Shown here: in pieces, positions 11,260 to 38,155 of the stretch
How the letters are laid out: each line of letters opens with the position of its first letter
How positions within the stretch are numbered: the first letter of the stretch is position 1
Source: Promethearchaeati archaeon
GTDB taxonomy: Archaea; Asgardarchaeota; Heimdallarchaeia; JABLTI01
Reading direction: 5' to 3'
NCBI GenBank assembly: GCA_013166835.1
Contig: JABLTI010000030.1
Location: 1 to 48,538 of the forward strand
Length of the DNA stretch: 48,538 nucleotides
Notes under the pieces: generated by a model
Told to the model about the DNA's origin: nothing
Seen by the model: the letters and a program-made list of their open reading frames with translations, nothing else
The model's database searches: none
Position numbers and translations under genes: made by a program

Positions 11260-11398
11260 GATAACACCCTATTTTACGATTCCTACAAACCAGTAAAAGA
11301 ATAGCTCTATACTAAATTAAGAATGGTGATATAAGAACTTAATATATTAAAAAAAAGAAAGTTTTATTTAAAGTTATACTTCTCTATTCTCGATTGTG

Positions 11399-12355
11399 AT
11401 GTTTGATAATGTAGAAGCTGCATATGAACGTATAAAGCAGTTCGTAAACAAAACACCAGTGATGACCTCTTCAACTCTAGATGAAAAACTGGGTTGCGAA
11501 TGTTACTTCAAATGTGAAAATTTCCAAAAAATTGGTGCTTTCAAGTTTAGGGGTGCTCTCAATACGATTCTTCAATTATCTGATGAAGACAAGAAGAAAG
11601 GAGTTATCACTCATTCCTCAGGTAATCATGCTCAAGCTCTCGCTTTAGCTGCTAAAATCTCAGGTATTAAAGCTGTTATTGTTATGCCTGAAAATGCTCC
11701 TCAAGTGAAAGTTAATGCTACTCGAGGGTATGGTGCTGAAATAGTAGTATGCGGTTCCAAACCTGGGGACAGAGAAGAAGCTGTCAAACCTCTAATTAAA
11801 AAACATGGATATACTTTAGTTCATCCTTCGGACGATTTAACAATAATACATGGAGCAGGAACTGCTGCTTATGAATTAATCAAGGAAGTAGGAGAGTTAG
11901 ATTATGTTTTTGCTCCAGTTGGTGGCGGAGGATTTCTTAGTGGTACAGCTCTTGCAACTAAGGGATTGCTTTCCAAGTCAAAGGTTATAGCTGTAGAACC
12001 AAAAAATGCTAATGATGCTTACAGATCCTTTAAGGAAGGTAAAATCATTCCCTCAATTAATCCCAATACCATTGCTGATGGTTTGCGAACCCAGTTAGGT
12101 CCAAACACTTTCAAGGTCGTCATGGATAAAGTTGACGATATTATCCTTGTTTCTGAAGATGAAATTGTTGATGCTATGCAATTTCTTTGGGAACGAATGA
12201 AATTGGTTATAGAACCTTCTGGTGCTGTATCCTTAGCTGGTGTTCTTTCAAAACAAATTGATATTAAGAACAAGCGTGTTGGAATAATGGTCTCTGGTGG
12301 GAATATTGATCTTACTAATTTCTTTGCAACAATAAGATCCACTATTCAACAATAA
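11399..12355 (+). CDS. PLP-dependent serine racemase / threonine-serine dehydratase family
   Basis: FKCENFQKIGAFKFRGA (PLP lysine), SSGNHAQ, VGGGGFLSG, TIADGL, EPSGA, SGGNID; no ACT regulatory domain. Confidence 0.9.
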   Translation: MFDNVEAAYERIKQFVNKTPVMTSSTLDEKLGCECYFKCENFQKIGAFKFRGALNTILQLSDEDKKKGVITHSSGNHAQALALAAKISGIKAVIVMPENAPQVKVNATRGYGAEIVVCGSKPGDREEAVKPLIKKHGYTLVHPSDDLTIIHGAGTAAYELIKEVGELDYVFAPVGGGGFLSGTALATKGLLSKSKVIAVEPKNANDAYRSFKEGKIIPSINPNTIADGLRTQLGPNTFKVVMDKVDDIILVSEDEIVDAMQFLWERMKLVIEPSGAVSLAGVLSKQIDIKNKRVGIMVSGGNIDLTNFFATIRSTIQQ

Positions 12356-12423
12356 TGTGACATTATATCAACCAAACATATTTATATTAGTAAACCTTTT
12401 CGTTTACTTGAACCTCAATATTC

Positions 12424-12536
12424 GGAGGAGTGTAGAAAGATGGATTGGCCGTCGCATTTGGGAAAGGCTTCCGATAGATTGGGATAAGGGCAGAAATCCT
12501 GATTCAGAGTAGCAATAATCAAAATGTCACTCCTCC
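12424..12536 (+). ncRNA. Candidate structured non-coding RNA or cis-regulatory leader, family unknown
   Basis: Perfect 9-bp terminal helix GGAGGAGTG/CACTCCTCC; internal G-U-containing stems; about 46% GC (52/113, hand count) between AT-rich flanks; TATA-like TTTATATT at 12381 and T-run at 12541. Confidence 0.5.
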
Positions 12537-12579
12537 ACTATTTTTAGAAAAGTAAAAAAGTCCCCAATGAATTCTATAT

Positions 12580-13344
12580 ATGAGTGTAATGACTGAAGAG
12601 AATACACTAGCAGCAGCTATATCTGCAGTAAATCAACTTATAGAAAAAAAGAATCAAATAAAAATCGTTGCTTTAACAGGTTCTGGAATATCAAAAGGAT
12701 CTGGAATACCTACTTTTCGAGGTAAGGATGGTTTATGGAAGAATTATAATGCCATGGAATTAGCAACTCCGCAAGCTTTTGGAAGAGATCCTCAACTCGT
12801 TTGGGAATGGTATGCTTGGCGTATCGGAATTATTCTAACAAAGGATCCTAATCCTGCTCATCATGCTTTGGTAAAGTTGCAAGAAAAGGGATTGCTTGAA
12901 TGGATTATTACACAAAATGTTGATTCATTACATTTTAGAGCTGGTTCCAAGAATTTACTTGAGGTTCATGGAAATATTTTTCGCACGAAATGCATGAGCT
13001 GTGAGAAGAAAATAATGCTATCAGAAGCACCTATAGAACCGCCTTTGTGTGAATGTGGGGAGATGCTTCGTCCAGATGTCGTATGGTTCGGTGAATCATT
13101 AGATAGAAATGTTCTACAAAAGGTTGATGAAATAATTAGAACCGAATGTGATGTTTTACTTGTTGTAGGTACTAGTGGTGTTGTGTACCCAATAGCAGAT
13201 TTACCTTACTTAGCAAAAATGAATGATGTCATAGTAATCGAGTTTAATGTTGATGAAACACCAATCACACAATTAGCAGATTATACGATACTTGGAAAAT
13301 CCGAAGAAATACTCCCTAAATTTGTTGAAGGTATAATACATTAG
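12580..13344 (+). CDS. cobB: NAD-dependent protein deacylase (sirtuin, class III-like)
   Basis: TGSGIS..SGIPTFRG, WEWYAWR (YxxR), TQNVD, HGN, CxxC..CxC zinc site, RPDVVWFGE, GTSGVVYP. Confidence 0.93.
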   Translation: MSVMTEENTLAAAISAVNQLIEKKNQIKIVALTGSGISKGSGIPTFRGKDGLWKNYNAMELATPQAFGRDPQLVWEWYAWRIGIILTKDPNPAHHALVKLQEKGLLEWIITQNVDSLHFRAGSKNLLEVHGNIFRTKCMSCEKKIMLSEAPIEPPLCECGEMLRPDVVWFGESLDRNVLQKVDEIIRTECDVLLVVGTSGVVYPIADLPYLAKMNDVIVIEFNVDETPITQLADYTILGKSEEILPKFVEGIIH

Positions 13345-13413: not shown

Positions 13414-14334
13414 ATGAAGAAATGGTTAAAGATTACACTCACTACCATTGGTTTGGTTGTTCTGGTTTTTGGTTCTCTCCTAATTTTTTCGATTATCCCT
13501 TTGATTGGAAAAAATACCATGCTTCATCCTACTCACGAAGCTATGGACAAGTATCCTCATGATTATGGAATGACTTATGAAAATGTAACCATCACAACAA
13601 GTGATGGATTAGGTTTAAAGGGTTGGTTTATTGAACCAAAGAATTCTTCTGCTACAAACTCCAACATAACAATAATTGTCTTACATGGAGCTACTCATTC
13701 AAAGACTTGGATGTTGGATCATTATGGAGAAGGATTTTATAATTTAGATTATCGATTGGTCTTCTTTGATTCTCGTAATCGAGGTGAATCTCCAGATACA
13801 AATCTCGGGTTGACTTGGGGTATTGATGAAGTAAAAGATGTGCAAGCTGTAGTAAATTACACAAAATATCAACCTGGAGTTAATGCTTCCCAAGTTGTCT
13901 TGTTTGCTGAAAGCCAAGGGGCTGCAACTATCCTGTTCTATACTGCTCAGTTCAATGATGTTTCTGCTTGTATTGCTGATTCTTCTTGGGCTTATGGTGA
14001 TCAAATGATTCGACAAGCTTACCCTATTAGATCAGGTTTCCCTTGGGCTATTTTTGGACAGATAACTATCGCTAAGATGGAAACTCATTATGGGTATTCG
14101 TTTGCGGATATATCCCCTGCGAAAGAAGTTTACAATATTACTATCCCTACATACATTATCCATGGTAATGCTGATTTGGATATTAATCCAGAAGATGCTA
14201 CAACCATCTACAATGCGCTAAATAATACTGCTTCAAAATTACTCTGGCGGGTAGATGATAGAGGTCATGTAAAAGCATACTTGGAACCTAATTATTTCAC
14301 GAATATTCAGCAATTCATAAACAATAATATTTGA
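13414..14334 (+). CDS. Membrane-anchored alpha/beta hydrolase
   Basis: N-terminal TM; DGLGLKGWF, VLHG, DSRNRGES, nucleophile elbow AESQG, IHGNAD, GH. Confidence 0.85.
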   Translation: MKKWLKITLTTIGLVVLVFGSLLIFSIIPLIGKNTMLHPTHEAMDKYPHDYGMTYENVTITTSDGLGLKGWFIEPKNSSATNSNITIIVLHGATHSKTWMLDHYGEGFYNLDYRLVFFDSRNRGESPDTNLGLTWGIDEVKDVQAVVNYTKYQPGVNASQVVLFAESQGAATILFYTAQFNDVSACIADSSWAYGDQMIRQAYPIRSGFPWAIFGQITIAKMETHYGYSFADISPAKEVYNITIPTYIIHGNADLDINPEDATTIYNALNNTASKLLWRVDDRGHVKAYLEPNYFTNIQQFINNNI

Positions 14335-36952: not shown

Positions 36953-38155
36953 ATGAAGCTACAGCATTTTCTAGAATTACTTGAGAATCATAAAATCTTC
37001 AGAAAAGATTCGATTAATCTAATAGCAAGTGAGAATTATTCCTCACCTTTTGTTCGAGCTATTCTTTCTTCTGATTTAGGTAATAGATATTCTAGCGATT
37101 ATTATGGTGGAACTAAATTCATACAACAAATCATCAGCAAAACTGAAAGTTTCATCAGAGAGTTATTCGATGCTGATTATGCTATTGTTTCTCCCTTATC
37201 TGGAAATATGTGTGATTTAGCCCTCATTCTTGGTTTAACTAAATCTGGGAATAAAATCATGTCTGTAGAAGCTGGGGATTCAGGTGGTTATCCATTGAAT
37301 TATGAATTCTTCAATCGAAAATACTTGCCTTTTCATTTCTCAAAGGAAAACATGAATATTCTCGTTGAAGAAAGTATAGAAGCAATCAAGAAGCAAAAAC
37401 CTAAGTTGGTTATTTTTGGCTCCTCATTTTTCCCCTTTCCACATCCAGTAAAAGAAATAACTCAAGAATTTGAGAAACGTAAGACAATTCATTTCGCATT
37501 TGATGGATCTCATGTTTTAGGCCTTATTGCTGGGAAACAATTTCAAGATCCTTTGCGTGAAGGATCCTCTATACTTGTTGGTTCAACGCACAAATCTTTT
37601 CCGGGTCCCCAAGGAGGATTAATTGTAACAAATGATATGGAAAAATATGAGACTCTATCTTCTACATTTGATATCGATCTGGAAAATGGCATAAAATTAA
37701 CAGATAATGTTCATGCTCATAGAATAGCTGCCTTAGGTGTAGCTGCTTTGGAAATGCTTGAATTCGGAAAAGAATACGCATCTCAAATCGTTAAAAACAC
37801 AAAAACACTTGCATCAACGCTAGATAATCATGGTATTCCTGTAAAGTTTAAGCATCTTGATTTCTCCGAATCTCATCAAGTAATACTTGATATCTCATCC
37901 ACCAATGATAAAAATATGTTGAAAGAACGAGCTGAGAATCTTGGATTGATGATAGATTCAGGCATACGCTTAGGGACTGCAGAAATAACTCGTATGGGTA
38001 TGAAAGAACTCGAAGTTAAAGAAATAGGAGAAATCTTGGCGGGTATTTATCACAATGATATCACCGAAGATATGTCTTGGAGAATTAAGGATTTTGCTAG
38101 AATTTTCAGTAGTCCTGCTTATTGTTTTAACAATGTTGGTGATTTGCCTTTCTAA
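36953..38155 (+). CDS. glyA: Serine hydroxymethyltransferase, archaeal type
   Basis: INLIASEN, YYGG, DGSHVLGLIAG, GSTHKSFPGPQGG, GIRLGTAEITRMGM; GAGGAG upstream of ATG 36953. Confidence 0.93.
   Translation: MKLQHFLELLENHKIFRKDSINLIASENYSSPFVRAILSSDLGNRYSSDYYGGTKFIQQIISKTESFIRELFDADYAIVSPLSGNMCDLALILGLTKSGNKIMSVEAGDSGGYPLNYEFFNRKYLPFHFSKENMNILVEESIEAIKKQKPKLVIFGSSFFPFPHPVKEITQEFEKRKTIHFAFDGSHVLGLIAGKQFQDPLREGSSILVGSTHKSFPGPQGGLIVTNDMEKYETLSSTFDIDLENGIKLTDNVHAHRIAALGVAALEMLEFGKEYASQIVKNTKTLASTLDNHGIPVKFKHLDFSESHQVILDISSTNDKNMLKERAENLGLMIDSGIRLGTAEITRMGMKELEVKEIGEILAGIYHNDITEDMSWRIKDFARIFSSPAYCFNNVGDLPF

Follow-up and report, generated by a model that had tools for sequence, protein, structure and literature searches.

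We found that a real, conserved and folded RNA lies before a sirtuin gene (cobB) in one group of Heimdall (Asgard) archaea. This structured RNA is uncatalogued and genus-restricted, and a family of CU-rich small RNAs (sRNAs) encoded elsewhere in the genome carries the reverse complement of its conserved nucleotides as an invariant part. After weighing the structural and comparative data, we tentatively propose, with somewhat less than even confidence, that the element belongs to a cobB leader that derives from an inverted sRNA gene and would be open to sRNA pairing while it is nascent. The features of the locus are collected in Table 1; the window is the whole stretch of 48,538 nucleotides that was analyzed, and G000 is the genome that carries the element (85% complete).

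Table 1. Features at the sirtuin locus (window coordinates) and the intact sRNA paralogues of the same genome.
Feature	Position	Strand	Remarks
PLP-dependent Thr/Ser dehydratase-family gene, upstream	11396..12355	+	No link to the element: G003 carries another gene between dehydratase and promoter
Conserved BRE/TATA promoter	12364..12388	+	TATA 12381-12388; predicted start ~12410 (TATA+29)
Imperfect, operator-like palindrome AGTAAAC-N6-GTTTACT over the start site	12389..12408	.	Left arm nearly invariant in 12/12 loci
Alternative 4-bp 5′ hairpin CCTC/GAGG	12413..12428	+	CCTCA invariant in 5/5 type-A loci; part of the predicted sRNA1-bound state
Structured element	12424..12536	+	P1 12424-32/12528-36; P2 12439-53; P3 12454-59/12522-27; P4 12477-12504
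Purine-rich tract	12448..12494	+	Predicted collinear pairing with the single-stranded linker of sRNA1/sRNA2
Conserved core CCGTCGC..GGGAAAGG	12449..12467	+	TATA+68 to +79 in 12/12 loci; its reverse complement stands in the CU-rich sRNAs as their invariant 3′ linker and stem
T5 run, possible weak terminator/attenuator	12541..12545	+	Weaker in G002 and G003; U-tracts longer in other lineages
Genus-restricted CobB-type sirtuin (NAD-dependent deacylase)	12580..13344	+	NF001753 above cut-off; start probably 12589
Alpha/beta hydrolase, downstream	13414..14334	+	Missing in 5/11 other loci checked; a paralogue is cargo of the G007 cassette array
Two intact sRNA paralogues in G000	C77:77252-77373; C142:15796-15911	+	Other loci: L135, L132

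The initial annotation had described a span of 113 nt with 52 G or C, and its coordinates and helix arms proved exact on recheck. The perfect 9-bp closing helix, P1, was predicted with a pair probability of 0.98-1.0. Among the internal stems that had been put forward, P2 (0.87), P3 (0.28-0.82) and P4 (0.74-0.91) were predicted as well, and only GGGA/TTCC was unsupported (0.01-0.02), leaving four of the five helices standing. The plus-strand fold reached a z-score of -2.27, with 4 of 200 shuffles equally stable, compared with -1.32 for the minus strand; with flanks included, the plus-strand value was just -0.97. A perfect helix of at least 9 bp with at least 6 GC pairs that closes 80-130 nt occurred in 1 of the 884 intergenic regions of G000, and it was the element's own. 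The argument that the G-U pairs identify the plus strand as the RNA did not hold up, because the plus strand is G-rich (33 G, 19 C), which confounds it.

A BLAST search of 100 relatives returned four clear homologues, all from the same genus and syntenic. Identity between the element and these homologues was 0.96, 0.87, 0.90 and 0.53, compared with 0.80, 0.66, 0.70 and 0.39 at the four-fold sites of the sirtuin gene; the element is thus more conserved than synonymous sites, which supports purifying selection. Covariation was limited: three compensatory pairs in P1 and P3 were found (3 of 500 shuffles), all of them from one genome, G009. From the sirtuin orthologues and the promoter pattern we assembled 12 distinct loci, which represent 10 of the 11 genus genomes and two metagenome contigs (L070, a duplicate of G009, was excluded). 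The promoter and the palindrome over the predicted start are common to all 12. Four folds occur downstream of this promoter, namely type A, which is that of the window (five loci), and types B (two), C (three) and D (two); the tree left five lineages unresolved. A covariance model of the five type-A sequences matched only those five among 83 class genomes and missed all seven B, C and D loci. Across all loci, a CCGUC(GC) core, a purine-rich tract with GAAAAGGG-like words, a GGAG/CUCC hairpin and a U-run are kept. The core, CCGUC..GGRAAAGG, stands at TATA+68 to 79 even in lineages with other folds (68-73 nt from TATA, and 79 in type C), and its chance expectation is about 5e-4 per 12-nt window. 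Orthologous loci retain only approximately 15 nucleotides, with the fold lost. Both the core and the GAAAAGGG motifs were recognized before the CU-rich sRNA family was found.

The statement that the element matches no tRNA, 5S, SRP, RNase P or riboswitch consensus was borne out: it has no Rfam match, ARAGORN was empty in the window, and the 5S, SRP and RNase P RNAs have their own genes elsewhere. In the cmscan-type check against Rfam, nothing matched positions 12424-12501 at E<=10, and one chance match to DdR4 (E 5.9) overlapped the 3′ end of the element. At the gathering threshold, Rfam 15 gave no hit in the window or in five homologous loci. A divergent 5S rRNA was rejected, as the 5S of this genome is a permuted gene at C173, and so was an RNA antisense to the 5S linker, as linker and core do not covary in 11 genus genomes. 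Full-length SRP and RNase P RNA genes are present at C107 and C163. A tRNA-like reading failed for want of a cloverleaf with a T-arm in the window (ARAGORN), only the helix being acceptor-like. We also rejected a CsrB-type sponge and a Y RNA, given that the CsrA and the Ro60/TROVE proteins were each found in 0 of 1 genome (G000, at its 85% completeness), and an Argonaute guide, given that Piwi occurs in 1 of 11 genus genomes and was not found in G000 at that completeness. A guanidine-III riboswitch, an origin recognition box, a dif site, a retron RNA, 6S RNA and an HDV-like ribozyme had no support from Rfam or context. Viral contigs contained no match to the sRNA core and one chance match to the core of the element. 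Neither the element nor the CU-rich sRNA family turned up in a literature search, most subscription papers and bioRxiv supplements lying outside its scope.

The TATA-like box and the T5 run are both present as previously claimed. The start spacing of TATA+29 equals that of the SRP, 5S and CU-rich sRNA genes. The promoter pattern occurs once per genome in 10 of the 11 genus genomes, always at the sirtuin locus, and in 2 of 389 other genomes; G006 possesses the sirtuin and both sRNAs without promoter or element. With a matrix built from sRNA-family promoters, the plus-strand promoter exceeded the intergenic null at eight of the 12 loci (p 0.002-0.02; G000 0.011), compared with none of the 12 for a minus-strand promoter at sRNA-family spacing (p 0.06-0.75). 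This test favors the plus strand, which is therefore the probable transcript. A tRNA-trained matrix gave the plus promoter just 4.0 bits, under its 1566 listed sites, so the promoter is conserved but not evidently strong. A genome-wide promoter matrix built by EM converged on the Shine-Dalgarno motif and was not used; the genome does use Shine-Dalgarno sites, with GGAGGA as the top hexamer. A scan for bacterial promoters and terminators found no match. For the operator-like palindrome, 13 loose intergenic matches in the genome formed no convincing regulon, and no other good copy was found. A 14-nt word in the type-B hairpin (G005/G004) equals the minus strand of the G000 palindrome region 12389-12408, possibly by chance. 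Element and sirtuin are never separated in the 12 loci, though the flanking genes change. The likely start of the sirtuin is ATG 12589, because G003 has only that start. The distance of 43 nt reported between element and cobB holds for a start at 12580 and becomes 52 nt with the likely one. The ribosome-binding site of the sirtuin lies outside the element, and because the two do not overlap, no direct switch is evident.

The promoter scan also led to an ~80-bp repeat that contains the core and has 14 copies in G000. This repeat family is present in 12 of 12 genomes of the same taxonomic family and in none of 71 others. Its copies form same-orientation arrays between variable genes at two fixed loci. 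The fixed array ends, read on the opposite strand, are RNA genes that consist of a TATA box, a 5′ hairpin, a CU-rich linker, a 3′ GACG hairpin and a U-run. The linker, approximately 40 nt, is open and invariant, and the 3′ hairpin is 98.9% paired, with G-U and compensatory changes. The genes measure ~105-125 nt, with 2-5 full copies per genome in all 12 family genomes. Searches outside the taxonomic family gave no strong match (best E 5e-4), and neither the sRNA nor the repeat matched Rfam. We regard these genes as a previously undescribed sRNA family, predicted from sequence.

The complementarity between the element and the exposed region of these sRNAs is extended. The predicted pairing is collinear over ~45 nt and continues past the repeat boundary. 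Among 2663 leaders of the genome, this leader ranked 5th by duplex energy with sRNA1 and 3rd with sRNA2, in a comparison where a CU-rich query favors any purine-rich leader; of 263 G-matched control windows, 2 and 4 equaled its pairing. A profile of the sRNA family was raised on the minus strand in types C and D, G009 and G007, with p 0.001 (D), 0.001-0.03 (C), 0.04 (G009), 0.045-0.21 (A) and 0.057/0.53 (B), and never on the plus strand (p 0.37-0.98). The window element itself scored p 0.21. The test windows were centered on the core, and these profile scores are therefore inflated. Taken together, the element looks, on weak to moderate statistics, like a back-to-front, diverged copy of a CU-rich sRNA gene, although we do not file it in the family, and descent from an inverted sRNA gene is likely. 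By such descent, the element would carry the complement of the single-stranded linker of the sRNAs.

The computed binding energies take intramolecular folding into account. By this measure, the sRNAs have a poor partner in the finished type-A leader, at -3.8 to -9.8 kcal/mol compared with medians of -9 to -10.6 for G-rich leaders (55 of 688 sampled). The nascent type-A leader is predicted to bind at -10 to -20 kcal/mol, compared with null medians of -8 to -9 and best null values of -16 to -17; the values for G000, -10 and -12 kcal/mol, fall inside the null range. For leaders of types B and C, the energies are -14 to -29 kcal/mol. The pairing site is thus predicted to be closed in folded type A, partly open in the nascent leader and open in B and C. 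In the predicted complex with sRNA1, P1, P3 and P4 are open and the CCUC/GAGG hairpin forms.

Based on these predictions, we provide a putative mechanism. The element would form the folded 5′ portion of an RNA transcribed from the plus strand, starting at ~12410 and running toward cobB; this transcript would be a leader, perhaps ending in part as a short RNA at the U-run, and would descend from an inverted copy of a CU-rich sRNA gene. During leader synthesis, sRNA1 and sRNA2 would pair with positions 12448-12494 and keep P3, P4 and P1 from closing, and once P1 and P3 had closed, the pairing site would be hidden. The outcome would be a change in read-through at the U-run or in RNA stability, and hence in sirtuin output, in either direction; alternatively, the short RNA would titrate the sRNAs. 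We infer that a kinetic window before P1/P3 closure is the simplest working model. The same energies also agree with the opposite reading, in which type A evolved to escape the sRNAs. Given its likeness to an inverted sRNA gene, the element may respond to pairing with RNA and not to a metabolite. The use of Shine-Dalgarno sites by this genome would suit CU-rich sRNAs. At low confidence, we further speculate that the CU-rich sRNA genes double as anchors of cassette arrays, that one inverted copy was domesticated before the sirtuin as an RNA-sensing leader or sponge, and that closure of the leader and production of the deacylase are decided co-transcriptionally by the sRNAs.

The working RNA could instead lie on the minus strand, as a third, diverged CU-rich sRNA paralogue (5′ hairpin, linker, GCGACG hairpin and U-run) that the cobB leader overlaps antisense. 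The family already has several copies per genome, the profile signal sits on the minus strand, P1 and the compensations in P3 are strand-neutral, and the minus-strand folds of G005, G004 and M068 (types B and D) have exactly the family layout. However, the type-A fold of the window lacks that layout and is poor on the minus strand. None of the 12 loci has a TATA box 24-36 nt before the minus-strand hairpin, whereas the 5′ hairpin begins 26-30 nt after TATA in 19 of 19 family genes. The covariance model of the sRNA family likewise did not recognize the window element or type B at E<=5, and its values for the D and C loci (E 0.016-0.14) were no better than noise in the same searches. We therefore consider a minus-strand paralogue unlikely.

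Alternatively, the promoter could drive a free plus-strand small RNA (~130 nt) with no tie to cobB and with a terminal helix resembling those of SRP RNA and RNase P RNA in this genome; the CU-rich likeness would then be a matter of chance or history only. This reading fits the tRNA-type promoter of its own, P1 at TATA+43, a terminal helix that ends in CCA and is unique in the genome, and the U-tracts after the hairpin in most lineages. It is rather unlikely all the same, as the fold is lost across lineages, all 12 loci have the element immediately ahead of the sirtuin despite changing neighbors, and cobB has no clear separate promoter. We rate as quite unlikely a structured leader that serves RNA stability and U-run damping and nothing else, with the core as a protein- or DNA-level site. 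Such a leader would leave unexplained both the ~45-nt collinear complementarity and the family-like minus-strand layout in B and D, although it accommodates the near-fixed distance of the core from TATA, the tolerance of different folds and the closure of the folded site to sRNAs.

The initial annotation had suggested either a new small RNA or a ligand-sensing leader of cobB. Homologues, selection, limited covariation and the promoter test support an uncatalogued, conserved structured RNA on the plus strand with a promoter of its own; ligand sensing, with only ~15 nt kept, is poorly supported. A riboswitch for NAD+, nicotinamide, ADP-ribose or acyl-CoA would fit the position before an NAD-dependent deacylase, as well as the three-way junction, in which the P2 loop is identical at all five type-A loci. 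The NAD+-I and NAD+-II riboswitches likewise precede NAD-related genes; unlike them, the element has no Rfam match (no riboswitch match in six loci scanned) and its fold is not kept. The aptamer is absent from 7 of 12 loci, and no copy precedes any other gene. That other lineages fold differently yet keep the core argues against a riboswitch, which we consider very improbable, and a constant locus with varying folds argues against both a riboswitch and a leader peptide. The leader peptide (uORF at 12439) was rejected: type-A length varies, G004 and type D have no start or frame, and third positions are invariant. A MITE or a neutral relic of a cassette boundary repeat is scarcely credible, despite the dispersed related repeats (14 copies), since the check run for it found the element to be single-copy at a fixed locus with no flanking duplication, since purifying selection and compensatory changes are evident, and since the likeness continues beyond the repeat end.

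RNA-based regulation in Asgard archaea is almost uncharted, and the proposed leader offers a specific, testable sRNA-target pair with a simple origin, since an sRNA gene, once inverted, would serve as a target from the outset. If true, it would be an sRNA-controlled attenuator born from gene inversion, and it would tie an sRNA network to protein deacylation in the archaea closest to eukaryotes. Its reach is narrow: the element is confined to one genus and the sRNAs to one family. Methanosarcina sRNA154 and sRNA41, described as masking ribosome-binding sites, have exposed pyrimidine-rich stretches, a description that would also fit sRNA1 and sRNA2; unlike them, the window element is the complement and not the sRNA. 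In the pairs CJnc180/CJnc190 of Campylobacter jejuni and SraC/SdsR (RyeA/RyeB) of enterobacteria, as PMC8687705 presents them, an RNA complementary to an sRNA aimed at G-rich ribosome-binding sites can antagonize that sRNA, and the two come from opposing strands of a single locus and undergo RNase III processing. On that account, the likeness lies in a purine-rich transcript complementary to CU-rich sRNAs in a Shine-Dalgarno-using host. In contrast to those pairs as described there, the intact sRNAs here are at other loci, they are complementary to the element only in part, and the RNA in question is probably the leader of an mRNA. By analogy, the element would work like bacterial sRNA antagonist or target RNAs without being a member of them.

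The element also led to an sRNA family whose 3′ ends mark cassette arrays, since the array repeats are copies of the 3′ ends of sRNA genes. Arrays occur at C74/C77, C185, C121, C137 and C142 of G000 and at L174-L191, anchored at sRNA genes; distal repeat copies are more decayed, and cassette content varies among close relatives. The hydrolase paralogue carried as cargo in the G007 array lies at L174:12522-13439. The window element bounds no cassette. Same-orientation repeat arrays that separate variable cassettes resemble the archaeal integrons and CALINs, as far as these are described in PMC9668308. Unlike the arrays described there, the repeats are sRNA 3′ ends, the arrays are anchored at sRNAs, and cargo orientation is mixed. 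An attC/IntI reading of the repeats was rejected, as IntI was not found and the only tyrosine recombinase found is Xer-like and under the IntI cut-off. IS110, Y1 transposases and resolvases were not found in G000. An Xer-like tyrosine recombinase with a Cys-rich insert is encoded at G000:C61:14202-15254 and at L134:934-1992; it is genus-restricted, with identities of 64-91% in eight of the 11 genus genomes and no higher than 32% elsewhere in the class. As the sole one found in G000, it is a candidate for the arrays.

Several other observations concern RNA genes of this genome. According to PMC8813620, 5S genes could not be predicted. We observed a circularly permuted 5S rRNA gene at G000:C173 ~37005-37160 (L109, L116-L131), found in 12 of 12 family genomes and four other class genomes; its helix I covaries and is closed by a short loop. 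A second sirtuin gene, G000:C173:26307-27035, is 45% identical and represents the class-wide form; in several genomes, ~10 kb separate it from the 5S gene. At G000:C260 ~8591(-) and C138 ~16750(-), strong promoters of the stable-RNA type precede structured, GC-rich stretches that contain no long ORF and are possible leaders or small RNAs. Finally, two tRNA genes were read oddly by ARAGORN, C59:19431-19538(-) as Stop-TTA with an intron and C31:7959-8060(-) as Pro with a D-loop insertion; these readings probably reflect non-canonical introns.
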